A DNA stretch of 64,000 nucleotides from a phage, in the sequence record PX880101.1; one strand, written 5' to 3'. The notes under the pieces are model-generated. The model made no database searches. It saw only the letters and a list, made by a program, of their open reading frames with translations, and was not told where the DNA came from. The position numbers and the translations under genes were made by a program. Positions within the stretch are counted from its first letter, which is position 1. Every line of letters starts with the position of its first letter. Below are positions 12,329 to 58,805 of the stretch, piece by piece.

Positions 12329-12340
12329 CAAGTAGTAGAT

Positions 12341-12371: not shown

Positions 12372-12375
12372 ATAG

Positions 12376-12576
12376 TTAGTAATACTCCCAACATGCCCCA
12401 TCTTCAGACGGCTTGACGCGCTTACCTTTATGGTCAACATAGGTATAGCCACAACCTTCACAAATAACAGGTGCCGCATAACCTTCCTTCCACTGGTCTT
12501 CTGTGATCAGTCCTTCCAGATCTCTGCAGTCAAAACCAAACAACTCTTCAGAACAATCTTTGCAAAAATCAGCCAT
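12376..12576 (-). CDS. zinc-ribbon protein
   Basis: 66 aa with CKDC…C…CEGC cysteine pairs; RBS gagga. Confidence 0.5.
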   Translation of the reverse strand: MADFCKDCSEELFGFDCRDLEGLITEDQWKEGYAAPVICEGCGYTYVDHKGKRVKPSEDGACWEYY

Positions 12577-12579
12577 TTC

Positions 12580-13062: not shown

Positions 13063-13150
13063 TTTGAGAGGGTATTTTATTTAGAGAGGTAATCACACAG
13101 AGGTGGGCAGTTTATGAAGGCACAGGCCTCGTTTGAGGCCTTAAAACAGA

Positions 13151-13531: not shown

Positions 13532-13561
13532 TTAGTCAGTCTCCATCTAGAAAGCCATACT

Positions 13562-13732
13562 TTACTTAAAGTCTTTGTCACCTATTACGATTGCACGAAT
13601 CCACTCATTGTGATGCTCAATGGATGTAAGGTGTAACATAATGCAGTGATTGTCATTACCAAACACGGCTCGATAAGCCTTAGCAGCACCATGATATAAC
13701 TTCCACATCACGTAATGGTATCTTCGTTTCAT
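13562..13732 (-). CDS. small hypothetical protein (56 aa)
   Basis: Not in ORF track (<60 aa); ATG overlaps the stop of the upstream gene as ATGA, suggesting translational coupling. Confidence 0.3.
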   Translation of the reverse strand: MKRRYHYVMWKLYHGAAKAYRAVFGNDNHCIMLHLTSIEHHNEWIRAIVIGDKDFK

Positions 13733-14208
13733 GGTTCTTTCTCCGGTTCAGGATCTGGGTAATCTTCAATAATAAAGGGCCATCCGTTACGCTTAGCGTC
13801 AGACTTATACTCAATCTCCTTCATTGCAAACTCTAACTGATTCTTAGCCGGAATGCAAGCTGGAGAGTCATCAACCCAGATGTCTGGGTAGATATCAAAC
13901 TGCGCCAGATAAGCGGCCTTCTGAACGCCTCCAGTATAAAACACTCCAACATCGAGCTCCTTGCGCCAGTATTCGATGTCCACGTTGTCTTGAGTGATGA
14001 ATCGGGAAGTCACAAGATAGACTGTCCACCCTTCCTTCTTCAGGTCCTTAATAAGGCGGGAGAAGATGAAAGGGCTCGCATTAAACGTTCCATCAAAGTC
14101 AATAGCAATGATGTGTGTGCCGTGACGAGTCTCATATGGATTACTCGTGGTGAGATTGCTGTAGTTAAAAGGTACTTCTTCTCCGCAGTAGCTGTAGTCC
14201 ATATTCAC
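13729..14208 (-). CDS. HAD-superfamily phosphatase (possible 5'-deoxynucleotidase)
   Basis: HAD motif I IIAIDFDGTF (DxDGT) and motif IV-like IWVDDSP. Confidence 0.55.
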   Translation of the reverse strand: MNMDYSYCGEEVPFNYSNLTTSNPYETRHGTHIIAIDFDGTFNASPFIFSRLIKDLKKEGWTVYLVTSRFITQDNVDIEYWRKELDVGVFYTGGVQKAAYLAQFDIYPDIWVDDSPACIPAKNQLEFAMKEIEYKSDAKRNGWPFIIEDYPDPEPEKEP

Positions 14209-35360: not shown

Positions 35361-35630
35361 CATTGTGGCTTCATAGAGTAATCTATGTCGAATAACCTCT
35401 TTAACTGCGGGAAGCCTAAACCTTATGGCAAGGTAATCCGCAACGAAGCGCTCAAAAGAGCGAACGCTCAGAGGCCATTCCGAAAGGAAGTAGACCAGCA
35501 AGTGCGGTCGAAATGGGAGGATTCCTGTGGTTGCTTATCATAGGAATATGAGATGGTCCGATCCTACGTGAAAACGTATGGCTATGCACGTAAAGGTGCG
35601 GGGTAGCTTAACGACCTACCTGAACTATTG
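35355..35630 (+). ncRNA. group I self-splicing intron (276 nt, no internal ORF) within the DNA polymerase gene
   Basis: 5' exon ends in U (35354), intron ends in G (35630); guide sequence CAUU|GUGG (35361-35368) pairs with both exon ends; P-like CUGCGGGAAG (35405-14), Q-like AAUCCGCAACG (35435-45), P7 GACCA (35493-97) with UGGUC (35554-58); splicing restores …YYH-DEYQLQV…. Confidence 0.7.
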
Positions 35631-44255: not shown

Positions 44256-44581
44256 CAGAGATCATCATTTCAACTGCAGGGTATGTGTTCCTGACAATCA
44301 TTGCACTGACTATTTTGGTGACAGTGTATGGGTTTGTTATCCTTCCTATCCTTGAGACATTTAGTTTGTGTCGGTGTTGGAGAAAAGCTTACGGTCCACA
44401 ACCATGGAAGGACTGGCCCCACCTGGTGCGCTTAGCGTTCTCTTATGCTTACGATCACTCCAGTAGTGCATGCATAACCGGATACCACGCCCACAACTGG
44501 AGCTGGGAAGGATTGAGGAAATGGAATGTTACAAAGACCATACCTCTACGCATGTACAAACCTAAAAACAAAGACAGCTGA
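44252..44581 (+). CDS. membrane protein
   Basis: 109 aa; N-terminal TM segment IIISTAGYVFLTIIALTILVTVYGFVILPIL; last gene of the replication block. Confidence 0.5.
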   Translation: MTEIIISTAGYVFLTIIALTILVTVYGFVILPILETFSLCRCWRKAYGPQPWKDWPHLVRLAFSYAYDHSSSACITGYHAHNWSWEGLRKWNVTKTIPLRMYKPKNKDS

Positions 44582-44892
44582 TACTTGAAAATTCCTGGCA
44601 TATCAAGTGTAAGGGGGATTTCTAAAATGGATTTCCTCCTTTTGATATTTCACCGGGCTGGATATTTTAAAATTCTTAGAAAATCAGAAAATGGATCGAA
44701 AACTAAAATGGATTTTTCAGAGTAGGCGCGACAAGCTGAATAACTCATCCTATCGTTTGCACCATATTCCAGGCCACCATTATAGATTTCCCACACATGC
44801 TAACCTCCCTCTACTAGAACTTCCTCCACTTGCCCTTAACCTTCTATGGTAACAATCTAACCACTATCTTGAAGTTGCGGTGCAGCTTTCCA

Positions 44893-45025
44893 AGTACTCG
44901 ATCTACTTTTCATTTCATGGCTTGGATTTTCTGAAAATTTTTCTCGATAAATTTCTCAGTACTCGATCTGTTTTTCGTTTTCTGAATCGGATTTTCTGGA
45001 AATCGTTCCGGATCTCGACCTGAAA
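44893..45025. repeat. imperfect tandem direct repeat, two 65-bp units
   Basis: agtactcgatct…ggattttctg…ttctc occurs at 44893 and 44958 in the same order and spacing. Confidence 0.6.
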
Positions 45026-45130
45026 TTTTTGGGGACGAAATCGATTTTTCGTTTTCAGAAATGGATTTTTAAAATTTCTATATGGGAATATTTTATGGGA
45101 TACTGTTTTATAGGAAATTGTTACGGAGGG

Positions 45131-45148
45131 TAATTAGCATGCTAATTA
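45131..45148. repeat. 18-bp perfect palindrome taattagcatgctaatta
   Basis: Exact inverted symmetry seen directly; possible protein-binding site. Confidence 0.6.
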
Positions 45149-45216
45149 AATTTATTAAATGCGAGGAGTTCTCATTTAGAATTTTGAATGATAATCATTC
45201 TCGTTTGCAGAATAAC

Positions 45217-45258
45217 GGGCAGGCCCGGTGATTGTCTCCCGGCCCCTGTTGCCCCGGC
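45217..45258 (+). repeat. GC-rich repeated element, copy 1
   Basis: gggcaggcccggtgattgtctcccggcccctgttgcc; GC-rich island in AT-rich DNA; near-identical inverted copy at 54969-55013. Confidence 0.55.
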
Positions 45259-45356
45259 TTGTTATTATAGTATCACACAGGACAAAGAAAGCAAGGATTT
45301 TTTGCATAAATTTTTAAATGATAATGATAACCGTTCTCATTTTATGCAGCGCCCAT

Positions 45357-45396
45357 CCCCGGTGGTTGTCTCCCCCGTCACCGGTGCCTGCCGTCC
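45357..45396 (+). repeat. GC-rich repeated element, copy 2 (diverged)
   Basis: ccccggtggttgtctcccccgtcaccggtgcctgccgtcc shares the ggtgRttgtctccc core; the preceding aatgataat…tgcag is also duplicated at 45183 and 45315. Confidence 0.45.
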
Positions 45397-45598
45397 TTTC
45401 GATAGGTATATTTTGCCACCTGGCGGGGCCGCTGTCAACACTTTTCAAAAAAAAATTTCTAACCTGATGCGCTGACCGCTGCAACCTGGCGGGGCCAGCC
45501 TGGCAGGGCCTAACTGACCAGGTAGGAGATAATGAAGGCTTGCAAACCTGGTGGGCCTATGCTATAGGATAGGTAACAATTGAAGAGGAGGTACAAAA

Positions 45599-45775
45599 AT
45601 GGAAGGTAATATGATCCCCCTGGAAAATGTAGCTATTAATGACACTGAGGCTATCGCCCTGGTTGAAAAGGCTATGGCGGGAGCGTTGGAACATAAAGAA
45701 GAGTACGAAAAAATGATGGTTAACCTGGCAGGGGCGGCGGCTGGAGAATTCTACCCAAAAAATAATTTTAACTAA
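45599..45775 (+). CDS. small hypothetical protein (58 aa), first gene of the early array
   Basis: Not in ORF track; ATG follows strong RBS gaagaggagg at 7-nt spacing. Confidence 0.45.
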   Translation: MEGNMIPLENVAINDTEAIALVEKAMAGALEHKEEYEKMMVNLAGAAAGEFYPKNNFN

Positions 45776-45778
45776 TGG

Positions 45779-45807
45779 TTGACAGCTCGGACAGTTCTTG
45801 TTATTCT
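45779..45807 (+). promoter_or_regulatory. sigma70-like early promoter
   Basis: TTGACA-17 nt-TATTCT. Confidence 0.45.
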
Positions 45808-45860
45808 TATCCTCGCAAGGTGAACAACACCACACCAATTAACAGAGAGGATAAAAAATC

Positions 45861-46058
45861 ATGAACGCCTACGGAATTAAAGTACGTCGCAACACTCGCC
45901 AGGTGGTCACCAATCAAGTGATTTGCCGGGTGGATGTAACCATCAACAACGGGCAAGGCCTTTATAAATTTCGTCGCGGTCATAGCTATACCCTGCAGCA
46001 GCTTAACCGTTGCGCCCTGACAAAAGGTCAGATCAACCACTGGTTTAATAAAAAATAA
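45861..46058 (+). CDS. small basic hypothetical protein
   Basis: 65-aa ORF, RBS agagagga. Confidence 0.5.
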   Translation: MNAYGIKVRRNTRQVVTNQVICRVDVTINNGQGLYKFRRGHSYTLQQLNRCALTKGQINHWFNKK

Positions 46059-46061
46059 ATA

Positions 46062-46090
46062 TTGACACGTAGTCTGACACAAAATATACT
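46062..46090 (+). promoter_or_regulatory. sigma70-like early promoter
   Basis: TTGACA-17 nt-TATACT. Confidence 0.55.
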
Positions 46091-46122
46091 TAAATCACAA
46101 AAGACACTAAGAGGATAAAATC

Positions 46123-46521
46123 ATGAAAACTACAACCTTTAATTTTGACAATGCCGACTTCTCTTTTTCTGATGTTAAGAATTGCCGCCGTGATCGTGGA
46201 TTTTACAAGGCTTATAATCTGGTTGGCCTAGACGATGATAATAATTTGCACGAAGTAGCGGAGATCCGGTACTATGCCGCCGCCAGCGGTAACACTAACT
46301 ACTGCGTTTTTTGGATACACGACAACAAGAATAATAAGTACGGTTATACTGGTGGCAAGGCGAGCGGTCACGGTTATGATAAGGCCAATGCAGCACTTGA
46401 GAGCGCGTTAAATGCTATGGGGATCACTGCCAACGGCTGGATCTATGAAGATGAGTTTTTGTCAGCACTTGCTGCCCACCTGGGGTATAAAAAGCACATT
46501 GTGACATGCGCCCACGAATAA
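46123..46521 (+). CDS. hypothetical protein
   Basis: 132-aa ORF, RBS aagagga. Confidence 0.55.
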   Translation: MKTTTFNFDNADFSFSDVKNCRRDRGFYKAYNLVGLDDDNNLHEVAEIRYYAAASGNTNYCVFWIHDNKNNKYGYTGGKASGHGYDKANAALESALNAMGITANGWIYEDEFLSALAAHLGYKKHIVTCAHE

Positions 46522-46531
46522 AAAAAAATTA

Positions 46532-46560
46532 TTGACACGCTGCAAAATTAAAGTAAACTA
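46532..46560 (+). promoter_or_regulatory. sigma70-like early promoter
   Basis: TTGACA-17 nt-TAAACT, followed by leader hairpin ggcggg-aatgttt-cccgcc. Confidence 0.5.
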
Positions 46561-46608
46561 GACACAAAAGGCGGGAATGTTTCCCGCCAACACAAAGGAA
46601 AAAAGATC

Positions 46609-47004
46609 ATGAATAAGAACGTACGCCGCATCATGAACGAACTGGCAAACGATGAAAAAATTATTGATATGCATTTGGTAAACATTTGCCGCCGTTGTGT
46701 AACATATAACAACCGCGCCGCAAAAGCGCGTGAGATGAACGCAAAAGGCACCTTAAAGCCCTTTCAGGTGGTTGTAAAATCTATAACCAGTGCAGCAGAC
46801 CAGGCGCATGACCACAACAACGGGAGCACTAATATTGATCCGTCTTACGTAATGAAACGGATCCGGACTTGCAAGAATAAAGAGCAGGTGTATAACGTCA
46901 TAGATTGGTTGGACTCCCTGGGCGATGTGGTTTATAATAGGTTTTCTGCAGCTATCGAGATCCAGCTTGACAGACTGGACGGGAAAGTACTGAAAACTTA
47001 CTAA
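46609..47004 (+). CDS. hypothetical protein
   Basis: 131-aa ORF, RBS aaggaaaa. Confidence 0.55.
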   Translation: MNKNVRRIMNELANDEKIIDMHLVNICRRCVTYNNRAAKAREMNAKGTLKPFQVVVKSITSAADQAHDHNNGSTNIDPSYVMKRIRTCKNKEQVYNVIDWLDSLGDVVYNRFSAAIEIQLDRLDGKVLKTY

Positions 47005-47052
47005 GTTTATTTTTAGATGGCCTTGACGCCAGGGCCATCAATAAAGTAAACT
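47005..47052 (+). repeat. promoter-stem-loop cassette (PeSL-like), copy A
   Basis: ttatttttagatggccTTGACgccagggccatcaataaagTAAACT: 7-bp stem gatggcc/ggccatc with the -35 hexamer in the loop, -10 18 nt downstream. Confidence 0.6.
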
Positions 47053-47083
47053 AATCCCAGTTAAGCTAAAAGGAGGCTTGAAG

Positions 47084-47203
47084 ATGAGCACTACACGCCA
47101 GCACACAAAGGTAACTATTATCGTTTGCATCATTGGTTATATCCTGGCGCAAATGTTGATGGGTAGCGCCAACGGTGTCGCAAAATTTTTCTTAAACTTT
47201 TAA
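47084..47203 (+). CDS. small membrane peptide (39 aa)
   Basis: Not in ORF track; strong RBS aaaggagg; hydrophobic core IIVCIIGYILAQMLMG. Confidence 0.4.
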   Translation: MSTTRQHTKVTIIVCIIGYILAQMLMGSANGVAKFFLNF

Positions 47204-47231
47204 TTGACAAGCTAACTTAGATCGGTATACT
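47204..47231 (+). promoter_or_regulatory. sigma70-like early promoter
   Basis: TTGACA-16 nt-TATACT, then leader hairpin gggaaaacttccc. Confidence 0.55.
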
Positions 47232-47281
47232 AAACACATCAACGGGAAAACTTCCCAGAACACACAAAAGGAGAAAACACC

Positions 47282-47623
47282 ATGACCACTATGACCGCCG
47301 CAGAAAAAGCTATTCAGATCGCTGCCCTGAAAAAACAGATCGCAGACCTTGAGAATAAGATCGATAACTTTGAAATCGACGAGGACAAGTACGACGAAAA
47401 CTATGATGAATGGTTAGACGAGATCTACGGCGAAATTATGATCGGAAACATTTCTTTTCTTCCGTCGCGTATCCTCAAGGAGCTAGATCCTATCGCTTAC
47501 CGCTGCGGATTTAGCGACTACATCGACAGCCTGGATATTGAGGACGATGAAGAATACCAGGAATTACAGACAGAGTTGGAAGAAGCAAAAGAAGAGCTTG
47601 CGGAGCTGGAAGAAAACGAGTAA
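47282..47623 (+). CDS. highly acidic protein; candidate DNA-mimic/anti-restriction factor
   Basis: 113 aa with very high Asp/Glu content (…DIEDDEEYQELQTELEEAKEELAELEENE); RBS aaaggag. Confidence 0.5.
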   Translation: MTTMTAAEKAIQIAALKKQIADLENKIDNFEIDEDKYDENYDEWLDEIYGEIMIGNISFLPSRILKELDPIAYRCGFSDYIDSLDIEDDEEYQELQTELEEAKEELAELEENE

Positions 47624-47671
47624 GATTATTTTTAGATGGCCTTGACTCCAGGGCCATCAATAAAGTAAACT
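47624..47671 (+). repeat. promoter-stem-loop cassette (PeSL-like), copy B
   Basis: gattatttttagatggccTTGACTccagggccatcaataaagTAAACT; one mismatch to copy A. Confidence 0.6.
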
Positions 47672-47712
47672 TTATACTGTTAACACTGAACTAATGCATA
47701 GGAGTTAAAACC

Positions 47713-47958
47713 ATGGCAGCACTAATCACTAAATATTACGCCCCTACCAACACCAAAAGCGCCCGTATCATGGTAAAAGGCTTCGGACGTAAAAAGGTTT
47801 ACACCTGGGATTATGCCTTAGACACGGAAGACAACTACACCAACGCGATGACAGATTTTATTAATGAGCTGAACACGCGGATCTTGACAAATTATAAAAT
47901 TACCGATATTGCCTATATAGGGGAAGGCGGGATCTGTTTTGTCGGTATCGTCAAATAA
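47713..47958 (+). CDS. hypothetical protein
   Basis: 81-aa ORF, RBS aggag. Confidence 0.5.
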   Translation: MAALITKYYAPTNTKSARIMVKGFGRKKVYTWDYALDTEDNYTNAMTDFINELNTRILTNYKITDIAYIGEGGICFVGIVK

Positions 47959-48016
47959 ACTGTTTTTTCGGTGGTCCTGGTAGCAGGGCCATCTATAAAG
48001 ATAGTTTATCAATACA

Positions 48017-48388
48017 ATGAAAGGAGAAAGTAACATGATCAGTGGGGCAAGTTTTATTATTGGCGCTATTGCTACGGCTTTAATTGTAAACAAGATCCAA
48101 TCTAAAAACGAAAAAGAGAGCAACGCGCTCACAGAATACCCATTTTGGATATTCAACGACAATGAAGACTACATTATCAAGTACAAGAATGAGAAGGGCG
48201 ACCAGGTAACACCGCGACCGATCCCGGCCTACAAGATGCAAGAAACACTATACCGCCTAAAGGCTGGAGGCGCAAAAATCGTAGACTTTTGGGGATATGA
48301 TTGCAAGGATCAGGAGGTTATAAAACGGCGTATCCGGGCTATTCAGGCCAATATTGAAGTTAGCAAGGGGGGAATATATGAAGATTAA
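48017..48388 (+). CDS. hypothetical protein with N-terminal hydrophobic segment
   Basis: 123 aa, RBS aaaggag; preceded by a degenerate PeSL-like hairpin (47971-48000). Confidence 0.5.
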   Translation: MKGESNMISGASFIIGAIATALIVNKIQSKNEKESNALTEYPFWIFNDNEDYIIKYKNEKGDQVTPRPIPAYKMQETLYRLKAGGAKIVDFWGYDCKDQEVIKRRIRAIQANIEVSKGGIYED

Positions 48389-48575
48389 TTTTGAGAAGAT
48401 TGTAAAGCGATCTCATGATTCCGAAGAGCTGCCGGAACGCCGCCAGCGTAACAATAAACTGAATAAGCCAAAAAGATTTGGGAAGATCTGGCGGAATCAT
48501 TATGATCGTAAATTGCCGGGCCTCCTTTTGGAACGTGAACGGCAGGCGGAACGATACCGCCACAAAGGCAACTAA
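48378..48575 (+). CDS. small basic hypothetical protein
   Basis: ATG 48378 after RBS aagggggg (ORF open from 48354). Confidence 0.4.
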   Translation: MKINFEKIVKRSHDSEELPERRQRNNKLNKPKRFGKIWRNHYDRKLPGLLLERERQAERYRHKGN

Positions 48576-48583
48576 CAACCAAC

Positions 48584-48612
48584 GCCCCGCCATCGTGCGG
48601 GGCTTTTTATTT
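48584..48612 (+). terminator. intrinsic terminator
   Basis: gccccgc-catcgt-gcggggc followed by tttttattt. Confidence 0.65.
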
Positions 48613-48755
48613 CTACCCTACGAATAGCGCCCCTGGTTGGCCCTGTAAGCGCCAAAAAGGCCCCACCTATGCAATCGCCCCCTTTAACCTGAAAACATCG
48701 CTTAGGGCCGTTTTATGGCGTTAAAAATATCATTGACAGTGATTTTATTTAAAGC

Positions 48756-48783
48756 TTGACATCTTAAACAGGTTAGCTATACT
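48756..48783 (+). promoter_or_regulatory. sigma70-like early promoter
   Basis: TTGACA-16 nt-TATACT; a second TTGACA lies 23 nt upstream. Confidence 0.55.
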
Positions 48784-48815
48784 AACCACATCAAAGAGAG
48801 AAAGGAGTAAACGCC

Positions 48816-49076
48816 ATGCGTAAATTAAAAAATTTTGATAAAGTTGATGTTGTCCTGAATAATTTTTACTACTGCAACAACAAGGCCATTTGGTGGCGTG
48901 ATAGTTCCACCGATAAAGTCAAGGCGCGCTTTCTCCAGGGGCACTGGCAAGGCCGCCCAGTGATTAAAATCATGGGGCAATTGGTAGCGTTTAAAAATTG
49001 CCGCCGTGTTGATGACGTTGAGGAGATTTTAAACATTTTGCGCCACAATAATTTAAAAAATAGTGTTGACAAGTAA
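48816..49076 (+). CDS. hypothetical protein
   Basis: 86-aa ORF, RBS aaaggag. Confidence 0.5.
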   Translation: MRKLKNFDKVDVVLNNFYYCNNKAIWWRDSSTDKVKARFLQGHWQGRPVIKIMGQLVAFKNCRRVDDVEEILNILRHNNLKNSVDK

Positions 49077-49093
49077 ATCTCAATAAGTATAAT
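49066..49093 (+). promoter_or_regulatory. sigma70-like early promoter
   Basis: TTGACA-16 nt-TATAAT overlapping the stop of the upstream gene; leader hairpin ggcgggaaaacttaccgcc. Confidence 0.55.
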
Positions 49094-49150
49094 TAAACAC
49101 ACAGGCGGGAAAACTTACCGCCACTAACAAAGAAAACAGGAGAAAATATC

Positions 49151-49774
49151 ATGACCACCGTTAACATTACCACAGGTTACAATTTATCTTTCGACGTGCT
49201 GACCGACGAACAAAAAGAAAAAGCCATTGAAATGGTACGCGAAAGAGAAGAACACAGCGGGGATGACTTTTTTGCAGAAAGTGTAATTGAACACTACAAA
49301 GAATATATCTTTCCAGAGTACGGCCTTGAAGATACCGAAGTACATTGGTCCGGCTTTTGGTGCCAGGGTGACGGCGCGTCAATCAGTGCTGAAAACGTGG
49401 ATTTAGAAAAATTTTTGCGTAAAGTAAAGGCCCTGACCAAGTTCCGATCAATTCGTCACTTGTTCGGCACAATGCACGATGGCGAGTTATCAGCCAGTGT
49501 TGAACGCGACAAGTACAGCCATTACAGCCATGAAAACACTGTAAGCGGATACATTGATACCACCTGGCTAGATCTGACCGCCAAACAAGAAAACAAAGTG
49601 GAAGACCTGGAAGAGCTGATCACCGAGACGGTACGGGAGCTATCCCGCAAGGTTTACGTAGACCTGGAGGAGGCCTATCTAGAACAGTTCACTACCGAAA
49701 ACCTGATCGGCCTTATTGAGGCCAATGATTGGCGGTTTGATGTGGATGAATATGGAGAGATGAGTTTTTCATAA
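49151..49774 (+). CDS. acidic hypothetical protein
   Basis: 207-aa ORF, RBS caggaga; net acidic. Confidence 0.55.
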   Translation: MTTVNITTGYNLSFDVLTDEQKEKAIEMVREREEHSGDDFFAESVIEHYKEYIFPEYGLEDTEVHWSGFWCQGDGASISAENVDLEKFLRKVKALTKFRSIRHLFGTMHDGELSASVERDKYSHYSHENTVSGYIDTTWLDLTAKQENKVEDLEELITETVRELSRKVYVDLEEAYLEQFTTENLIGLIEANDWRFDVDEYGEMSFS

Positions 49775-49782
49775 ATAAAGTG

Positions 49783-49810
49783 TTGCAATAATCTAAAAAC
49801 CTGCTATATT
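49783..49810 (+). promoter_or_regulatory. sigma70-like early promoter
   Basis: TTGCAA-16 nt-TATATT, then leader hairpin ggggcaagacgtttgcccc. Confidence 0.45.
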
Positions 49811-49865
49811 AAAACTCAAGGGGGGGCAAGACGTTTGCCCCACACAAAACAAAGAGGAAAACATT

Positions 49866-50246
49866 ATGAAAAACACTACTAAAGCTATTGACACCGTTAT
49901 GTTTAACCTGGTTACCTTTCGCGAGGATATGAAAGATCTTCCACGTGAAACAGTGTGCGATCACATTGAAAACTATCGCAAACTAATCAAAGAGTTGCCT
50001 TTAAAACGTGACCAGTATGCGGCTAACGCTATGCTCAACGCCATGATCAAAAAGATGATTCAGTGTGATTTAACCCTGGCCTATGATTATGCAGGTGGTC
50101 GTTTTGCAGTATACAATCAGCCCGTGCCTGGTATGAGCACCACCGAAGAATTGCACGCGTTAAATCTGAAACAAGATGTATGGGATAACATGCCCCGCGT
50201 GGTGGTGTGGGCAGAAAGCGGAAAGATTTACGGCGATAATTTTTAA
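49866..50246 (+). CDS. hypothetical protein
   Basis: 126-aa ORF, RBS agaggaaaa. Confidence 0.55.
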   Translation: MKNTTKAIDTVMFNLVTFREDMKDLPRETVCDHIENYRKLIKELPLKRDQYAANAMLNAMIKKMIQCDLTLAYDYAGGRFAVYNQPVPGMSTTEELHALNLKQDVWDNMPRVVVWAESGKIYGDNF

Positions 50247-50256
50247 TCAGGTAACA

Positions 50257-50284
50257 GGCGGCATATTTGCCGCCTTATTGTTAA
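50257..50284 (+). terminator. intrinsic terminator/attenuator
   Basis: ggcggc-atattt-gccgcc followed by ttattgtt. Confidence 0.5.
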
Positions 50285-50310
50285 ACAGAACTGCAAAAGA
50301 GGTACATAGA

Positions 50311-50682
50311 ATGGAATTTATTATTTTGGCTGTAGTAGTTGCCTTGTTCAACGCCTGGATCGCTGGCAAGATAGGTAGATCCGCTTTTCTATGGTTTGTT
50401 ATATCTATTTTCCTGGGAGTGGTTGCAACTATTGTATTGGTTATCCTTGCAATTGTTGACAAGGGCGATAATAGAAAGGGTAAAGTGTTTTCCGACCTGT
50501 ATGACGCACAAACGTTTGTCAACGCCTATTATAGTGATCTTCCAGTCTCCCTACGCTGCAGCCTGGCACAACAGGTTTTTGATGAGGCTAAAACCAGAGA
50601 CCAAGCCCATGAGATATGTTTAACTGAAGCGGATCGCCTATTTGAGAGGAATAGAAAATATGTGGACCAGCCGTTTAAATAA
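50311..50682 (+). CDS. membrane protein with two predicted TM helices
   Basis: ATG 50311 after RBS aaagagg (ORF open from 50176); MEFIILAVVVALFNAWIAG and FLWFVISIFLGVVATIVLVILAIV. Confidence 0.5.
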   Translation: MEFIILAVVVALFNAWIAGKIGRSAFLWFVISIFLGVVATIVLVILAIVDKGDNRKGKVFSDLYDAQTFVNAYYSDLPVSLRCSLAQQVFDEAKTRDQAHEICLTEADRLFERNRKYVDQPFK

Positions 50683-50792
50683 CGCCACGTTAATTAATCC
50701 CTTTAGTGAAGATTTGAAGCCAGCCGCCTGGCGTGACGGATTCAATAACGAACGCTTTATTTTCAGGCCTGATCTTGAGGAATTTTATAACA

Positions 50793-50918
50793 ATGGATCG
50801 AACAACAGCGGAGATAATTTTTCTTGTGGTGTGCGTGGTGATAGGACTCCTGGGGGCCATTGTAAACCACGTCACTACTAACAGGAGGGAAGGGGGAGAC
50901 GATGACAACCAAGGATAA
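50793..50918 (+). CDS. small membrane peptide (41 aa)
   Basis: Hydrophobic core IIFLVVCVVIGLLGAIV; an alternative overlapping frame (50660-50881) cannot be excluded. Confidence 0.25.
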   Translation: MDRTTAEIIFLVVCVVIGLLGAIVNHVTTNRREGGDDDNQG

Positions 50919-51021
50919 GCCATGCGCTGATAAGGTGCGCCGTGTTATGGTATGGCTTGAGATTATCGCCCTTGAAATATTGTTAGGCGTAGGGATGTAC
51001 TTTATCGCTGTAAGTAACTAA
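50902..51021 (+). CDS. small membrane peptide (39 aa)
   Basis: Not in ORF track; RBS aggagggaaggggga; hydrophobic core VMVWLEIIALEILLGVGMYFIAV. Confidence 0.3.
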   Translation: MTTKDKPCADKVRRVMVWLEIIALEILLGVGMYFIAVSN

Positions 51022-51025
51022 GAGC

Positions 51026-51053
51026 GGCCCCCGATCATGGGGGCCTATCTTTT
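51026..51053 (+). terminator. intrinsic terminator
   Basis: ggccccc-gatcat-gggggcc followed by tatctttt. Confidence 0.65.
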
Positions 51054-51075
51054 AAAAAATTTTTCTTCCGGGGTG

Positions 51076-51103
51076 TTGCAATCCGGTCCGGAATGTGGAT
51101 AAT
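51076..51103 (+). promoter_or_regulatory. sigma70-like early promoter
   Basis: TTGCAA-16 nt-GATAAT, then leader hairpin ggggagctaatcccc. Confidence 0.45.
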
Positions 51104-51159
51104 AACAATCAACGGGGAGCTAATCCCCACCACCACAAAAACCAGAAAGGAGAAACAAA

Positions 51160-51360
51160 ATGAGCAACAATATCCGCGTTATTAACTTCAAAAAAGAAGA
51201 AAAAATTGCCGTGCTGATTGACGGTCAAGAAATCTTCAAGGGCGACTATGAAGATCATCAAACGGCGATTAGTATCACTCGCGTGATTGGTTATCATAAT
51301 TTCTACCCCCAAGGCGCTGAGGCAGCAGTTAAACGAATCAAAGAGATTGTAGGCCTGTAA
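51160..51360 (+). CDS. hypothetical protein
   Basis: 66-aa ORF, RBS aaaggaga. Confidence 0.5.
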   Translation: MSNNIRVINFKKEEKIAVLIDGQEIFKGDYEDHQTAISITRVIGYHNFYPQGAEAAVKRIKEIVGL

Positions 51361-51362
51361 AA

Positions 51363-51409
51363 TTTATTTTTAGATGGCCTTGACTTCAGGGCCATCGATA
51401 AAGTAAATT
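51363..51409 (+). repeat. promoter-stem-loop cassette (PeSL-like), copy C
   Basis: tttatttttagatggccTTGACTtcagggccatcgataaagTAAATT; same architecture as copies A and B. Confidence 0.6.
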
Positions 51410-51444
51410 TAAACCCTGTTAAAATACCACGCAGTTAACAAGGA

Positions 51445-51753
51445 GTGATAGACATGTTTATCCAGGCTAATAATCTTTATTTCTTTGATGGTCAGATCGT
51501 AGATGGTGTGGAAGTGGAGATCACCGGGTGCCCTGGCGGTCAGGCTATGACTTTTCGGAATAATGCCTTTGATGATTCTCATATCGTTATGAGAATGGAA
51601 GTTACGAAGCTGGACGACAAGAAAACACTTATTGACTATTCTGTGAAAGATCATCCAGACTACCGCATGATCCATGGTGATTTGTGCATTGTTGACCGTG
51701 ACAAGGTGGGCGGCATTGTGATCGCTATTGTGAACGATGTTTTCTCAAACTAA
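51445..51753 (+). CDS. hypothetical protein
   Basis: 102-aa ORF, RBS aaggag. Confidence 0.5.
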   Translation: MIDMFIQANNLYFFDGQIVDGVEVEITGCPGGQAMTFRNNAFDDSHIVMRMEVTKLDDKKTLIDYSVKDHPDYRMIHGDLCIVDRDKVGGIVIAIVNDVFSN

Positions 51754-51930
51754 TTTCAGCAGGCGATTTTATGAAAGTCAAACTATATTACCTTAATGAG
51801 CTTAACCCCCTTGCCCAGGTCCGCGCCCTAGCTAATACCTTGATTTGTGAGAAATCTGTATATTGTGTTGAGCTTAACACGTCTCAAAGGTGGTTACTTT
51901 GACATCCATGCTGCAATCAACGGCCTGAAT

Positions 51931-52110
51931 ATGGAATTTATACGCTTACGTAACAGCCGCCGGAATCTGGCAAGAATGGAACAAGATCCGGCCCACCTTC
52001 GCAAGCTGGTTATTGAAAATCATCTGATGTTTAATGCCGAGGGGGATTATTACCATTTTCACCGCAAACGCTGGTACCGTGGCGGCAATACAGGCAAGAA
52101 TGCAAAATAA
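51931..52110 (+). CDS. small basic hypothetical protein
   Basis: In frame with ORF 51847-52110; start ambiguous (ATG 51847 or 51931); a 43-aa ORF at 51771-51902 is an alternative neighbour. Confidence 0.35.
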   Translation: MEFIRLRNSRRNLARMEQDPAHLRKLVIENHLMFNAEGDYYHFHRKRWYRGGNTGKNAK

Positions 52111-52147
52111 GGCCCCTAGCAGGGCCTGCAGCAATATAATCACATAA

Positions 52148-52179
52148 AGGCCATGCGGTTGCATGGCCTTTATTATTTT
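52148..52179 (+). terminator. intrinsic terminator
   Basis: aggccatgc-ggtt-gcatggcct followed by ttattatttt; preceded by a second hairpin ggcccctagcagggcc. Confidence 0.65.
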
Positions 52180-52227
52180 GGCGTTACAACGGCATACGGG
52201 GCGCTTAAAAAATTTTTAAAGAAGTAC

Positions 52228-52256
52228 TTGCATCATTCCCGACAATATGGATAATA
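52228..52256 (+). promoter_or_regulatory. sigma70-like early promoter
   Basis: TTGCAT-17 nt-ATAATA, then leader hairpin gggggaggccccc. Confidence 0.45.
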
Positions 52257-52312
52257 AGAGTTGTCGAGGGGGAGGCCCCCAATCGTTGACCAGATAGATA
52301 GGAGTTAAAATC

Positions 52313-52597
52313 ATGGCTATTGTTACCGCTGGCGATGTAGTAGAAATGGAAGCAAAATACTTAAAAGCGGGTATGCACATCCTACGGAATGATCAAGAGT
52401 TATTATTAACGATGGTTGACTATAATCACGGCCAGGATTATCCAAGCATCGACTACTTTTTTGAGTATGTTGATGAAGAGTTGAAAGAGGATGAGGCCTA
52501 TTGCGGTGAGTTCTGCAACTTCTTTTGTCCTGATGAGGTTGTAAAGGTTATTTATCAACCTGGCGTAGCTTTCCCGCTGCACGCTATCAATAAATAA
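52313..52597 (+). CDS. hypothetical protein
   Basis: 94-aa ORF, RBS taggag. Confidence 0.5.
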   Translation: MAIVTAGDVVEMEAKYLKAGMHILRNDQELLLTMVDYNHGQDYPSIDYFFEYVDEELKEDEAYCGEFCNFFCPDEVVKVIYQPGVAFPLHAINK

Positions 52598-52652
52598 ACC
52601 TGGCGGGGCCGAAAAGGCCCCCAATTATGAAAATAAAGAGAGGCAAATCATC

Positions 52653-52886
52653 ATGATGGAACAAATTAAACGCGCCGAGGCTATTAATGGCAACGTGATC
52701 TATTTTGTCAGCAAAAACGAAAAAGGCGTACCATATGCGGCAGTAATAGTACAACCTGACGGCGATTATTGGTTTACTGTGTACGGCGCTTATTCTTTTG
52801 GGCGTCCAGTGCATGATAAAATTTTGAAAGTAGCGAACCCTACCGGGAAGAATATCACAGCAGAAAAATTTTTTGAAAATAGTTGA
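52653..52886 (+). CDS. hypothetical protein
   Basis: 77-aa ORF, RBS agagagg; leader hairpin ggggccgaaaaggcccc. Confidence 0.5.
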   Translation: MMEQIKRAEAINGNVIYFVSKNEKGVPYAAVIVQPDGDYWFTVYGAYSFGRPVHDKILKVANPTGKNITAEKFFENS

Positions 52887-52910
52887 CATGACCATATAAG
52901 ACTGTAATAT
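52883..52910 (+). promoter_or_regulatory. sigma70-like early promoter
   Basis: TTGACA-16 nt-TAATAT; the -35 overlaps the stop codon of the upstream gene. Confidence 0.5.
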
Positions 52911-52961
52911 ATAAATCAAAGGGGGCAACGAACCCCACCAACTACAAAGAGGATAAAAATC

Positions 52962-53141
52962 ATGGCTATTATTGCAAAGACTGAGATCGTAGGCTTAGAT
53001 TCTATTCTCCTCGCATATGAGGAAGCTATAGAAATGTATGTGGTTTCCTATGGTGAGTATATCCGTGAATATAAATCTATTGATCTGGCTTTTGAATGTT
53101 ATATCCGCCAGGTTAATAAAGCGTACGATGATTATCGTTAA
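52962..53141 (+). CDS. small hypothetical protein (59 aa)
   Basis: Not in ORF track; RBS aagagga; downstream of promoter and leader hairpin gggggcaacgaacccc. Confidence 0.45.
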   Translation: MAIIAKTEIVGLDSILLAYEEAIEMYVVSYGEYIREYKSIDLAFECYIRQVNKAYDDYR

Positions 53142-53147
53142 AATAGT

Positions 53148-53177
53148 TTGACAACAGCCATCTTACAAAGCATAATA
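53148..53177 (+). promoter_or_regulatory. sigma70-like early promoter
   Basis: TTGACA-18 nt-ATAATA, then leader hairpin ggcggtggaatggtccgcc. Confidence 0.5.
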
Positions 53178-53228
53178 CATAAGGCGGTGGAATGGTCCGC
53201 CACCTGGAACAAAGAAGAGGTAAACACC

Positions 53229-53474
53229 ATGAAAAGCAATAAAGGTTATAACGGTTACAAAAACAAAACTCATTGGAATGTAAGCCTTTGGATTAATAAC
53301 GATGAGTCATTGTACCGGTTGGCCCAAGGCTTTATTAACGCCAATGCTAATCGTAATGATGCGGCGCGGGATATGATGCTTTTTCTGGAGCTAACCGGAC
53401 AAGATAAGACCCCGGACGGCTTCAAGTACAGCACTACGGCGATCCGTGCCGCGATGGTTGGAATGAAACACTAA
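53229..53474 (+). CDS. hypothetical protein
   Basis: ATG 53229 after RBS aagaggtaa (ORF open from 53148, which would overlap the promoter). Confidence 0.5.
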   Translation: MKSNKGYNGYKNKTHWNVSLWINNDESLYRLAQGFINANANRNDAARDMMLFLELTGQDKTPDGFKYSTTAIRAAMVGMKH

Positions 53475-53665
53475 AAGCACATAGCTGCCTTACCCTGGGG
53501 CTGTGGTAGCGGCCCCATGAATAAGGTTACTAACAGAAGAGAATAAACACCGTGAAACAGAAATTAATCGATGCAGTGATCTTGGTTATTGCCCTGGGTA
53601 TTGGCCTGATTGCAACCATGTCTAATATGATCTTGTCTTCCAACGGTATCTGGTGAGGTTGGCAA

Positions 53666-53881
53666 ATGATCACTAACAAAACAGGCAAAACGGAATTTTT
53701 ACGCAACTTACAGATCGGCAAGCCTGAGATCTGGTACTGCACTAAAACACCGCGTGACGAAATGAAAGACTTCACCGCCACGCTGCAACGGGTAAAGATA
53801 TCTATCACGCAGAAAAAGGCCTTACTAGTGGTGGAAGGGGAGATCCCCCAAACCGTTGTTATAGTTGAGCGTACAGCATAG
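53666..53881 (+). CDS. hypothetical protein
   Basis: 71-aa ORF, RBS gaggttgg; a 34-aa hydrophobic peptide ORF (53551-53655, GTG start) may precede it. Confidence 0.45.
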   Translation: MITNKTGKTEFLRNLQIGKPEIWYCTKTPRDEMKDFTATLQRVKISITQKKALLVVEGEIPQTVVIVERTA

Positions 53882-53972
53882 TTTAATTTATACAGATACC
53901 TGAAAATTAACCAACAAAGCATAAACAGGCGGTTACCGCCGCCTTAAACGTAGCAGAAAGAGGATAGACACA

Positions 53973-54257
53973 ATGAAAAAGATGATCGCAGTGGTTACCC
54001 TGGTTGTTGGACTTAATGCGCCTGTAATGGCTAAAGAGCTGGCAAAAGAGGTTAATCTAACGGATATTCATGCCGTCAATCAAATCGGGGTTACTTATCG
54101 CTTATGCCTTGCCGCTAAAACTTTTAAGGACGGCACAACAGAGTACTACGGATTCGAGGGTATCCGGTGCGGTGAGCTTGCTCGCGACCTTAAGGAAGAT
54201 CCAGACCTGGAGGAACTGCCCATAACCGTGAACGGGAAAACTTACGTGAACCGTTAA
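53973..54257 (+). CDS. secreted/periplasmic small protein
   Basis: 94 aa; signal-peptide-like N-terminus MKKMIAVVTLVVGLNAPVMA; RBS aagagga. Confidence 0.5.
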   Translation: MKKMIAVVTLVVGLNAPVMAKELAKEVNLTDIHAVNQIGVTYRLCLAAKTFKDGTTEYYGFEGIRCGELARDLKEDPDLEELPITVNGKTYVNR

Positions 54258-54259
54258 CC

Positions 54260-54394
54260 ATGAGAAAGATAATTATTACCATGGGGATCGTGGCGGCAAT
54301 GTTGGCGATCTTTCCCTTTATGGTTAGGTATGTGCTGATTAATGTTGTCCTGGTAGTCAGCGATCTGGTGTTATATATTAACTCATTGTTTTAG
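54260..54394 (+). CDS. small membrane peptide (44 aa)
   Basis: Not in ORF track; hydrophobic MGIVAAMLAIFPFMVRYVLINVVLVVSDLVLYI; 2 nt after the upstream stop. Confidence 0.3.
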   Translation: MRKIIITMGIVAAMLAIFPFMVRYVLINVVLVVSDLVLYINSLF

Positions 54395-54402
54395 GCGCGA
54401 TA

Positions 54403-54594
54403 ATGACAGCGGAAGAAGTTAAAAAAGTACTGGCGGTACTGCGTTATCATAATCATTGCAAGGTGAAGAATGATCCTGATTATCTTGATTCATCCCTTGA
54501 AGAGGATACACTACAAGCCATAAGCAACATGCAAGAATTGCTTAAGCGTATGACAGAGAAAAACCGACCGGACTACATAGGGGGTAAAATATGA
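54403..54594 (+). CDS. hypothetical protein
   Basis: 63-aa ORF. Confidence 0.4.
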   Translation: MTAEEVKKVLAVLRYHNHCKVKNDPDYLDSSLEEDTLQAISNMQELLKRMTEKNRPDYIGGKI

Positions 54595-54902
54595 TCGCTA
54601 TTACGCCAACCGTTTTAGATTGGTATCGGCAACGCATAGCGCCTCCGCTGGCTATCTTCAAAGATGCGGAAGCAAAACAACGCCGGATCTCAATACATGA
54701 GATCATCAACCTTAACGCTGGAGGCACACCATACCGCCCAGGACCTGGCCGTGAGATGGACAATACATTGGCGATCCTGAAGATACGCCGTAAACGGTCC
54801 TCCCTTACGCTGGATTCATTACACACAATGCAGTCTCCGTTCCAGGTGACTGGGAAACGGATCGCCAGGTCCTGGACAAAGGCCAATGACCGGACCGTAT
54901 AA
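54591..54902 (+). CDS. basic hypothetical protein
   Basis: 103-aa ORF, 4-nt overlap with upstream gene. Confidence 0.45.
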   Translation: MIAITPTVLDWYRQRIAPPLAIFKDAEAKQRRISIHEIINLNAGGTPYRPGPGREMDNTLAILKIRRKRSSLTLDSLHTMQSPFQVTGKRIARSWTKANDRTV

Positions 54903-54968
54903 ATAAAAAGTGTTTTGGTACTGATTTTGGGGTTGACTTGTTCGGCCCCTTTTGCTATTCTTATTAAA

Positions 54969-55013
54969 CGGGCGGCACTTGGGAACAGGGGGAGACAATC
55001 ACCAGGCCTGCCT
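54969..55013 (-). repeat. GC-rich repeated element, copy 3 (inverted relative to copy 1)
   Basis: Reverse complement reads caggcaggcctggtgattgtctccccctgttcccaag, about 30 of 34 identical to copy 1 at 45217. Confidence 0.55.
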
Positions 55014-55037
55014 GTCATATAAGAACTATAAAAACCG

Positions 55038-55067
55038 TTGACATCTGCCAGGGGGGTGGGGTAACAT
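55038..55067 (+). promoter_or_regulatory. sigma70-like early promoter
   Basis: TTGACA-18 nt-TAACAT, then leader hairpin gggcaaaggtgccc. Confidence 0.4.
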
Positions 55068-56300: not shown

Positions 56301-56328
56301 AGGGGCTTTAAAAGGCCCCTTTCTTTTT
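56301..56328 (+). terminator. intrinsic terminator closing the early array
   Basis: aggggc-tttaaaag-gcccct followed by ttcttttt. Confidence 0.65.
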
Positions 56329-58805
56329 GTCTGTATTTCTCCTACCACAAACGGCCCAGCCTGGCAAGTGGAATAATTGACTAGCCATCAATCCCACACA
56401 CTGTACAAATATACATGGAAAATAACTATTGCATAATTTTTCATTGTGTGGTAGCAAGTCCATTTTTACCCGTTTTCTCTCTCAAAATTGCACGTAATGC
56501 CGCTATTGCACAAATTTTAACCTGATGCACATCTCCAATATCTTGTCAACAACTAAAAATCTTTATAAGTCATACACTTACACAGCATCGAAAGCGTGTT
56601 CTACGCGAAAAATCGAGTATAACTATAGCCGCCAGATCTCAGAATTCACGTACGCACGCCATTCTATAGCCTGCAAAGTATTTATTCCAACCACAGAATA
56701 ACGGAATAGTCAATACCTGCATAAAATAATTATTCGTGTAAACTGCATAACATAAATCAGCTCAGGTGTCAACATTTTTCGTAAACAGTCCGAAATTATC
56801 ACGATGAGTTATCATAAACAGAGAAATCTTTAGTCGTCTAATGTTTACTGTACATTACTATACTGACTGGAATCATTAGATGACTAAGAGAAAGATAAGA
56901 AATAATTAATAATGTAATTATTTTACCTGTAACAATAAGGCAACTATGCAAACGAATGGCATGGCGCGACGGAGTCGCGACATAATATAAAAGCAGTAAC
57001 CATCACCCCCGTGATAGTTTGTCTGCAATCTATTAATCAGATCATAGTTGCCTTGTATTCAGTTAATCATGACATAATAAGCAAGGCAACTATAGATCTG
57101 CTAATAGTTGCCCTGCTTTTATATTATGTCATAGAAACACCCGAAGGGGTGACCAAAGGTCACCTGGCATGGCCAGTGAAAGATTATTAACTTGTTAATT
57201 GTTAACTTGCTAATTGTTTTCATGCAAACGAATGTCATGGCTTATCCTATCTGTGTAAACAGTTAAGGTGTAAACTATCCAGGCGTAAACAGTCTATGCG
57301 GGAACAATCTATACGTGAACAGTGAAACATGAAATAATAACAATCGTTATTGTGTCGAAAGTGTATAAGGTGTCATAGTATGTCAGACAAGTTTTTCTCC
57401 TCTTTGTCAAGTGCTGCATGAAAATTTACAAACTGGTATGGTAGCATTTTTGCGGCCCTGTTTACATTCAGTTGTGTATGTATAACCCTTGTTGTGTGGG
57501 CGTTTAGACGTCTGGACGGTTGGAAGTCTACAGGTCAATATCTAATCTATTGGCTGCTAACTATATCCCACACAAATAGTAAGAAATACAATTGTTATGT
57601 GAGTAAACGGTAACTCATGTTATCAATCCCTGTATGGATCGCCAGTGGTGCGCATAATGGGTATTATGTTAAATTGCCCGTAATGATAACTATTCTCACA
57701 ATGATAGGTATTCTCATTCACTCCCACAAGATAGGTTGCAAATGTTGTGCCACTGTGTGAACGGCCTCACCTATTAATTTGCCTCACTGCCTCGATATTT
57801 GAGAATTGTTATAAGAATGAGAAGTATTCCCATTTCGTCCGCCTGGCAGCACTCCAGTCGCTACCGCTCATGACAGGGCAGAACTGGGTCCATTCAGATA
57901 TTTCTGGCTGACTCTTCAGGTCTGTGTGGGAAAAGCCAACCTCTCCGGCGGGGCAGGGGTAGGTCAATTAAAAAATTTACGTGGTGTATGAAGAGCCCTT
58001 CAGGTAAGGCATGTATTATGGGATGAAACACCCTTCAGGCAATGATATTTGTGGGTGGGATATTTGCTGGAAAGCCAGATATGACGGGACTCCTGGCGGG
58101 GCAGGGGTAGTACAGACAGGGGAAATATGGTGGATGTAGTTGGGTGGATTGATCAGGCAGGTAGAGTATGGAATATGTTACAAGTATGTTAAATATGGAG
58201 GATGAATATCTGTAGGATTTGTGTGTAAAATCAAAGACTTAAGTGGTGTTGTGGTATTTTCTATAAATAATTCAAGTTTAATAGGTAATATTTGTCTCTA
58301 TCCGCTTTGTGTGGTAAACAAATTCAGATGGTGTTGGTTTACAAGTGTATACATAATATACAAATTAAAGATACAAGAAACCCCCCTCCCCCTTCGGCTA
58401 CCATTCACCTTTTCCTCTGACTGGTACTTAAACACTTATTCAGACTCTTCAGGTTATCACCCATATATCATATGGCAGTGACTGGTGTCCTCCGGCCCCT
58501 CTTTCGTCACCCGTCCGCTTCGCCATGCTAATGCCATAGCCAACGGTTCGGTTGTTCACCCTGTTCACTCAGGTGTATCTCCATACCCCTTCAAACCGAA
58601 GAGAACAGAAAACCCGAATTACTCGGTAAAAGAAAAGAGAAGAACTTAATTTTATCAGGATAGGCAAGAATGTCAAGGCATGACTGCTCACTAAACAAGC
58701 AAACAGTCATGTGTGGAAGGTAAGTGATTGTGGTGGTAGGAAATTTAGTTGAAAGATGTGTTATAGGTGCGCTTCCAGCACTTTAGCCGGGCAGCTAATT
58801 GTGTG
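56329..58805. other. 2.5-kb ORF-free, repeat-dense region between convergent gene blocks
   Basis: No ORF with an RBS. 18-bp inverted repeat gacataatataaaagcag (56979-56996 and 57113-57130); hairpins cgcgac-gga-gtcgcg (56965) and ggtgacc-aaa-ggtcacc (57148); direct repeats atgcaaacgaatgNcatggc (56946, 57231); gtaaacagt-like iterons (57252-57325); ctggcggggcaggggtag twice (57935, 58093). Confidence 0.5.

Follow-up and report, generated by a model that had tools for sequence, protein, structure and literature searches.

Genomic context and copies of the element

The DNA analysed here is a 64-kb stretch (the window) of sequence record PX880101.1. It belongs to an rV5-like E. coli phage (Vequintavirus) with a genome of about 135 kb. 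Plus-strand genes extend from about 19 kb to 56.3 kb, with a primase/helicase and a DNA polymerase containing a group I intron, followed by dozens of small genes. In this part of the genome, a short GC-rich element is present in three copies, designated A, B, and C (Table 1). Copies A and B lie in an AT-rich region that is probably non-coding and is a candidate origin or regulatory region, and copy C lies at the far side of an array of small genes. The GC content is 0.67–0.73 within the copies, whereas the left flank has 0.35 and the gene array between the copies 0.43. As described below, the elements are probably copies of a conserved structured RNA motif located at early promoters of the host type.

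Copies A and C are mutually inverted. Their ungapped arm is 29 nucleotides (nt) long with 90% identity, and the two arms are 9749 nt apart. When copy A was aligned with the reverse complement of copy C, 34 of 42 aligned columns were identical, with one gap of 4 nt. Copy B shares a 17-nt core with copy A (16/17 identical). The window contains the core CCNGGTGRTTGTCTCCC exactly three times, and the sequences and coordinates of the repeats given in a preliminary description of this DNA were confirmed. If up to three mismatches are allowed, however, 5 of 100 shuffled sequences also reached at least three matches. The case for the element is made by its conservation and not by the count of the core. 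The 10.5 kb around the elements are 99.7% identical to Escherichia phage A6-1 and 92–98% identical to the other listed rV5-like phages. A covariance model detected no further copy in the remaining 71 kb of A6-1, and the phage thus carries three copies.

Two open reading frames (ORFs) that overlap the elements were regarded as spurious in the preliminary description, and we agree. Both contain the peptide TGRPGDCLP, and the ORF at 45188–45475 is not a gene because stop codons interrupt it in the relative L026; it is nonetheless listed as a coding sequence in the BASEL annotation of phage MaxTheCat. In that phage (MZ501094, 78660–79243, corresponding to about 44880–45463 of the window), bas57_0097 to bas57_0099 overlie the iterons described below and copies A and B. 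At least bas57_0099 is spurious, as it has stop codons in a relative.

Predicted promoters and functional strand

The functional strand of the element is the one carrying GAGACAAnCACC, which is the minus strand for copies A and B and the plus strand for copy C. The preliminary description had quoted the opposite strand for A and B. On the functional strand, all three copies are located just downstream of a predicted sigma-70-type promoter. A simple promoter scan missed the promoter of copy A because its spacer is 19 nt long. The distance from the end of the predicted −10 hexamer to the conserved loop is 25 nt in copy A (measured to GAGACAA), 37 nt in copy B, and 30 nt in copy C. This arrangement is not restricted to the window. 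Among 34 phage copies, 24 have a promoter that agrees with the sigma-70 consensus at 9 or more of 12 positions and has its −10 hexamer ending 25–40 nt upstream, whereas none of 119 bacterial sequences with the same 15-nt pattern has such a promoter. Transcription of copy A would start near 45258–45260.

A second predicted promoter, P2, follows copy C and reads the same three small genes as P1 without the RNA domain. The copies had been described as the edges of the early-gene array. This holds approximately but not strictly, because sigma-70-like promoters and small genes extend further left than copies A and B, and a perfect TTGACA-16-TATAAT promoter is found at 43207.

A terminator-like hairpin with the −35 hexamer of the next promoter, that of copy C, in its stem or loop is present at 54929–54961, and likewise at 3286–3330 of the unrelated uncultivated contig L012. 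A family of 51-nt intergenic repeats (47002–47052, 47621–47671, 47956–48006, and 51359–51409) has a hairpin (GATGGCC..GGCCATC) with a −35-like TTGAC hexamer in its loop, followed by a −10-like TAAACT. These repeats look like combined terminator/promoter units between early genes. The motif CCTGGCGGGGCC recurs at 45414–45430, 45480–45496, and 52594–52610, and one of its copies forms the GC-rich spacer of the copy B promoter on the other strand. GC-rich spacers containing CCWGG are found in several of the early promoters of this region.

Table 1. Positions of the element copies and associated features in the window.
Feature	Position	Strand	Evidence or remark
Copy A, structured RNA domain	45210–45265	−	Covariance model R1, 71.4 bits, E = 7e-19; fold
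Copy A, conserved loop GAGACAAUCACC	45238–45227	−	Sequence
Copy A promoter, TTGCTT, 19-nt spacer, TATAAT	45264–45294	−	Predicted, sigma-70 type
Copy B, diverged paralogue, loop GAGACAACCACC, core 45358–45374	45344–45403	−	Sequence, fold
Copy B promoter, TTGACA, 17-nt spacer, CAAAAT	45410–45438	−	Predicted, sigma-70 type
Copy C, structured RNA domain with extra small hairpin (CUUG-GGAA-CAGG)	54965–55020	+	R1, 21.3 bits, E = 0.002–0.004; fold
Copy C promoter P1, TTGACT, 17-nt spacer, TATTCT, TG before −10	54933–54961	+	Predicted
Promoter P2, TTGACA, 18-nt spacer, TAACAT	55038–55067	+	Predicted; begins 18 nt 3′ of copy C
Terminator-like hairpin and T-run, closing the upstream gene array	54929–54959	+	Stem contains the −35 of P1
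AT-rich region with copies A and B, palindromes, and iterons	44582–45598		1 kb; unannotated in phage isim
Fur-box-like palindrome directly 3′ of copy A	45184–45202		15/19 matches to GATAATGATAATCATTATC
Fur-box-like palindrome directly 3′ of copy B	45320–45338		16/19 matches, best in the window
Three 47-nt direct repeats, two carrying the iteron GAAAA(N)GAAAA-N4-TCGAGTAC	44884–45069	−	Iterons 270–340 nt 3′ of copy A

Structure of the probable RNA motif

The motif is about 55–60 nt long. In the fold, an outer helix joins the predicted 5′ end of the transcript to a conserved 3′ strand, CCUGCC(C/U)G. Within it lies a short helix that carries the conserved loop (G)AGACAAnCA(C) at its tip. An additional small hairpin, often with a GNRA loop, is present in copy C and in some other lineages. 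The loop of 10–12 nt is highly conserved, and the stems vary with the pairing kept.

A structure of 15 pairs was tested on an unbiased MAFFT alignment of 11 A-type sequences. In this alignment, 88% of the cells pair, compared with 36–45% when the partners were slid, and two pairs change on both sides. RNAalifold alone recovered the inner helices, including a covarying pair (CG/UA/GC). The covariance model R1, built on the same alignment, gave scores of 58–80 bits for A-type copies, 41 bits for PAK_P3-like copies, and 20–31 bits for C-type copies. In copy B it matched only the loop (11.6 bits); the apparent counterpart of copy B in the relative L037, which has the same layout, scored 23.5 bits (E = 4e-4 to 7e-4). 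A larger alignment of 23 sequences was fitted to the model, and its pair counts therefore lean towards structure; 81.5% of its cells pair, compared with 25–45% after sliding. Compensatory changes are present at six pairs of this alignment, and its covariation score was reached by none of 500 shuffles. RNAalifold found no structure in a naive alignment of all types. This is because the 5′ halves differ in architecture, and type-specific alignments are therefore needed.

The strand is indicated by the pairs themselves. At two positions of the 23-sequence alignment, G-U is the commonest pair. Such pairs fit only an RNA of this strand, because the other strand would have A.C. The folding z-scores are −1.6 to −1.7 for the sense strand and −0.5 to −1.4 for the antisense strand. 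Short structured RNAs were the last of the options offered in the preliminary description, and the compensatory pairs, the G-U pairs on one strand, and the fixed distance to the promoter favour this option. Two other structural candidates were rejected. A G-quadruplex in copy A is not consistent with the relatives, in which the G-runs are not conserved (judged by eye), and a purine-rich RNA favouring R-loops is inconsistent across lineages.

Conservation across phages

BLAST searches with the short intergenic pieces as queries gave matches far outside Vequintavirus, and those in other genera centre on the element. Besides Phapecoctavirus, the matching phages are those of Klebsiella, Proteus, Raoultella, Cronobacter, Pectobacterium, Serratia, Enterobacter, and Salmonella. 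When IMG/VR was scanned for the exact pattern, the promoter-plus-motif unit was found in relatives of the window phage, in PAK_P3/KPP10-like Pseudomonas phages (Nankokuvirus), and in uncultivated contigs of 42–91 kb; the unit is also present in Seunavirus. The search for copies in relatives suggested by the preliminary description was thus positive in several phage groups. Two of the uncultivated contigs were compared with isolated phages; no nucleotide match was obtained for L012, and only two fragments of about 70 nt matched for L038. A "Felix-like" label for contigs L012, L030, and L038 was dropped because FelixO1 has neither the RNA nor the iterons. The PAK_P3 unit occupies about 50,818–50,873 of the minus strand; the early genes, on the plus strand, lie just to its right, and it points away from them. 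The conserved block extends about 80 nt past the structured domain, into the palindromes described below.

In bacterial genomes, a scan gave 120 pattern matches, and the best-scoring ones that were inspected lie in apparently coding sequence, without promoters, and score at most 27 bits. We treated these matches as chance occurrences, and they served as the negative control for the promoter comparison. No homologue of the copy A unit was found in E. coli genomes. A search of the window against Rfam 15 at the gathering threshold returned only a group I intron (RF00028, 64.7 bits, 35345–35580), which lies within the DNA polymerase gene; the coding sequence of this polymerase is joined from two pieces in the annotation of MaxTheCat. 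When the region 44500–45700 was searched up to E = 10, Rfam 15 gave only chance-level matches located elsewhere than at the element. ARAGORN found no tRNA or tmRNA in the window. The PAK_P3 RNAs sRNA1 and sRNA2 (Chevallereau 2016) were considered as the same RNA and rejected, as they have other sequences and loci. A full-text literature search for the 12-mer gave nothing relevant, and no paper describing the motif was found. Searches of the literature on rV5 transcriptomes, Felix O1 origins, and antiterminator RNAs in lytic phages likewise returned nothing relevant.

DNA downstream of the copies

Copies A and B are each followed by a palindrome. The two rank first and second among the Fur-box matches of the window, where four matches of at least 15/19 were found at three sites, compared with about 0.6 sites per window in shuffled sequences. 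The palindromes are conserved across genera as TGAGAAT-N-ATTCTCA. By eye, their halves vary independently (TGAGAAT or TGATAAT) with no covariation; therefore, the palindrome looks like a protein-binding site in DNA and not like an RNA hairpin. It has the same 7-1-7 symmetry as the E. coli Fur box GATAATGATAATCATTATC, a resemblance that concerns the palindromes and not the GC-rich element. However, its half-site has a G where Fur has a T, the palindromes lie downstream of the promoters, at about +55 to +75, and not over them, and PAK_P3-like phages do not have them. As judged from the sequence, the palindromes suggest that the transcripts may be gated in an iron- or Fur-dependent manner, or by a phage regulator with a similar site.

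Further downstream of copy A, at 270–340 nt, are the iterons. Iterons of the pattern AAAA-N(3–7)-TCGAG[ATC][AC]C are found 170–350 nt downstream of A-type and B-type copies in the same orientation, in twos or threes, and with the fuller form GAAAA(N)GAAAA-N4-TCGAG(T/A)ACC. They are present in Vequintavirus, Seunavirus GAP31, L009, L014, L037, the PAK_P3-like phage Ab03, and the contig L012, and almost nowhere else in those sequences. In the whole genome of A6-1, the pattern occurs only at this locus, except for one stray site. The downstream DNA is AT-rich, with a GC content of 0.23–0.36 in the enterobacterial phages. As at iteron-type, transcription-activated replication origins, a cluster of direct repeats adjoins an AT-rich stretch, and this arrangement is conserved in relatives. 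The iteron region is a candidate replication origin by these features of its sequence. The iteron GAAAA..TCGAGTAC(C) is conserved among phages of E. coli, Cronobacter, and Pseudomonas and in an uncultivated contig, and further iteron sites are located at 3693–3740 of L007 and 1491–1565 of L012. The enterobacterial versions contain GATC (Dam) sites.

The path downstream of copy C is different in content. It contains three small genes, a strong terminator at 56301–56320 (about 1.3 kb on), and then a repeat-rich non-coding region of 2.5 kb. This region (56330–58780) has no annotated gene and lies between convergent gene blocks, and the GC content dips to 0.377 at 56–57 kb. Its repeats include GTAAACAG-like units at 57250–57330 and GGCGGGGCAGGGGTAG at about 57944 and 58094, and Fur-box-like sequences (AATGATA...ATTCTCA) occur at 57679–57720 and 57800–57837. 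It may function as a second origin, as a site for packaging, or in regulation. FelixO1 has a comparable gap of 1.6 kb at 12305–13928.

A 30-codon ORF with a strong GGAGG Shine-Dalgarno sequence is present at 45139–45231 on the plus strand; it runs across the Fur-like box, and its end is within copy A. A twin in inverted orientation, with GGAGG and ATG (17 codons, minus strand), is located at about 44799, 340 nt to the left. The twin belongs to a 30-nt inverted repeat (44796–44825 and 45112–45141).

Proposed role in cis

The explanation that we favour, with a probability of about 0.4, is that the motif is a cis-acting 5′ domain of non-coding transcripts, which are made early and extend into origin-like DNA. 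Each copy would have a strong promoter of its own and would be the first sequence that host sigma-70 RNA polymerase transcribes from it. The motif would act in cis, either on its own transcript or on the polymerase carrying it. Copies A and B would head leftward non-coding transcripts, which pass the Fur-box-like palindrome and enter the AT-rich iteron DNA. The iteron DNA would be an origin that is activated or primed by this transcription, and the palindrome just 3′ of the RNA may serve as a gate. Copy C would head rightward transcripts that run away from the preceding gene array and reach the 2.5-kb repeat-rich region. The RNA domain may sustain untranslated transcription, by resistance to termination similar to that of put RNA or by protection of the 5′ end. 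The linkage to the iterons points to a role in cis.

The closest functional analogue, as far as position, copy number, and the logic of orientation can indicate, may be the put RNA of phage HK022. This RNA enables polymerase to read through downstream terminators, which depends on the beta′ zinc-binding domain. Like the motif, putL and putR are cis-encoded RNAs of about 60–70 nt located just 3′ of early sigma-70 promoters, several similar copies are present per genome, inverted in accordance with diverging promoters, and no dedicated protein gene is obvious. In structure the two differ. HK022 put consists of two long stem-loops with a triplex (PMC9378689), whereas the motif has an outer helix that encloses one or two short hairpins. 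They also differ in their phages, because HK022 is lambdoid and the phages with the motif are virulent myoviruses. The motif is not a member of the put family, because the test of homology fails (see below), and the analogy is therefore one of position. For now, the motif is best filed as a new RNA motif within the promoter-proximal RNA elements of phages.

Known origins offer a second comparison. The primary origin of T7 consists of the tandem promoters 1.1A and 1.1B and an AT-rich stretch, and oriE of T4 combines an early transcript with iterons. Similarly, two tandem promoters (B, then A) here point into AT-rich non-coding DNA, as in T7, and a predicted early transcript lies beside iterons, as in T4. 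The iteron module lies 3′ of the gene block that encodes DNA polymerase and primase/helicase. In contrast, the T7 and T4 origins are not known to have a conserved structured 5′ RNA domain, the origin considered here is a putative one, and copy C has no iterons. For protection of the 5′ end, the relevant comparison is with 5′-terminal stabiliser hairpins, such as that of the ompA 5′ untranslated region, which are not known to need a conserved loop sequence. As in these hairpins, the helix of the motif includes the predicted first nucleotides of the transcript, but the loop of the motif is conserved.

Several observations weigh against a cis-acting domain of this kind. Iterons are lacking downstream of copy C and of several of the copies in other phages, and none were found at the Phapecoctavirus loci with the pattern used; the RNA and the iterons are therefore separable. 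FelixO1 has neither. On the path of copies A and B, the scan finds only weak terminator-like sites, and these are several kb downstream. No sequence similarity was found between the motif and putL recovered from HK022, and the best match of R1 in the HK022 immunity region, with the filters off, scored 13 bits and is not located at put. As to the structure itself, the folding energies are only modestly better than those of shuffled sequences, much of the variation in the alignments is between close relatives, and the fitting of the larger alignment has been mentioned above.

A more ambitious form of the proposal, which we consider tentative and rather unlikely as a whole, is that the motif represents a new class of promoter-proximal RNA. 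It would reprogramme host RNA polymerase for long untranslated transcription that activates or primes an origin, with a function like that of put and an unrelated fold. This class would be common to rV5-like, phAPEC8-like, and PAK_P3-like phages, and a Fur-box-like operator would gate entry.

Alternative explanations

The main rival is a stand-alone, abundant small RNA of about 60 nt that acts in trans and is produced from the three promoters; we regard it as possible but clearly less likely than action in cis. Weak termination, or cleavage by RNase E within the AU-rich stretch past the outer helix, would release the RNA. Its loop would bind a host or phage protein, as a sponge or decoy, or pair with a host mRNA. 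Three near-identical copies behind strong predicted promoters, and a conserved loop on variable stems, are what such an RNA would have. Past the outer helix, every lineage has an AU-rich segment, and in L008 and the PAK_P3-like phages the helix leads into a U-tract. The surroundings of some copies also agree with release, as about 250 nt of non-coding DNA separate copy c of L012 from a fresh promoter downstream of it, and L038 has more than 1 kb of non-coding DNA after its copy. However, no consistent intrinsic terminator follows the element. The phage genome shows no excess of sites to which the loop is complementary (34 with the three copies counted, compared with 17–38 in shuffled sequences), and the E. 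coli genomes contained no homologue that the RNA could mimic. The conserved block also extends about 80 nt past the structured domain, and the iterons downstream point to the cis-acting domain instead.

It is improbable that the elements are read from the opposite strand, as hairpins that form outward-facing terminators or insulators and shield the genes between them. Copies A and B would then stop rightward transcription from the left, and copy C would stop leftward transcription from the right. This would neatly explain the inverted arrangement, and on that strand a moderately T-rich stretch follows each hairpin (TTGTTATTAT after copy A and TTTAATAA after copy C). However, a scan for intrinsic terminators flags none of the three copies on either strand. 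On the opposite strand, the commonest G-U pairs become A.C and the folding is worse, as given above, and both the conserved 12-nt loop and the promoter at a fixed distance on the other strand would be superfluous.

The least likely explanation, for which we see very little room, is that the elements act as DNA, either as binding sites for a phage or host regulator or as recombinase crossover sites that invert the 9.7-kb segment. Both had been proposed in the preliminary description, and neither is supported by our results. The inverted repeat is real, protein-site-like palindromes adjoin copies A and B, and short inverted repeats flank several kb here as they do in the Hin, Gin, Cin, and Pin segments. 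However, 67 related genomes cover the 10.5-kb segment in one place, and all of them are collinear over it; the relative order and strand of A and C are the same in 8 of 8 relatives compared, and the spacing of about 10 kb between A-type and C-type copies and their relative orientation are also kept in the two Phapecoctavirus-group genomes compared. Unlike the segments of the Hin/Gin type, no isomers were found in relatives, and the records read (parts of A6-1 beyond the window and a region of MaxTheCat) contain no gene annotated as an invertase, resolvase, or integrase (from annotation only, with no domain search, and with the window genes at 32–64 kb only). Compensatory changes and G-U pairs, in stems that vary while their pairing is kept, are not expected of a protein-binding DNA site, and this pattern of conservation is that of an RNA.

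Significance

The phage groups that carry the motif are widely isolated and have been proposed for therapy. In the literature searched, we found no description of the early regulation or the replication origins of these groups, and an RNA unit at early promoters that is linked to iterons provides a testable handle on both. The definition of the motif could be submitted as a new RNA family, and coding sequences annotated over the elements, such as bas57_0099 in MaxTheCat, are spurious. Should the RNA modify RNA polymerase, antitermination by RNA only would have been invented a second time, independently. If it is a decoy or a sponge, it would be a new early RNA for the takeover of the host.

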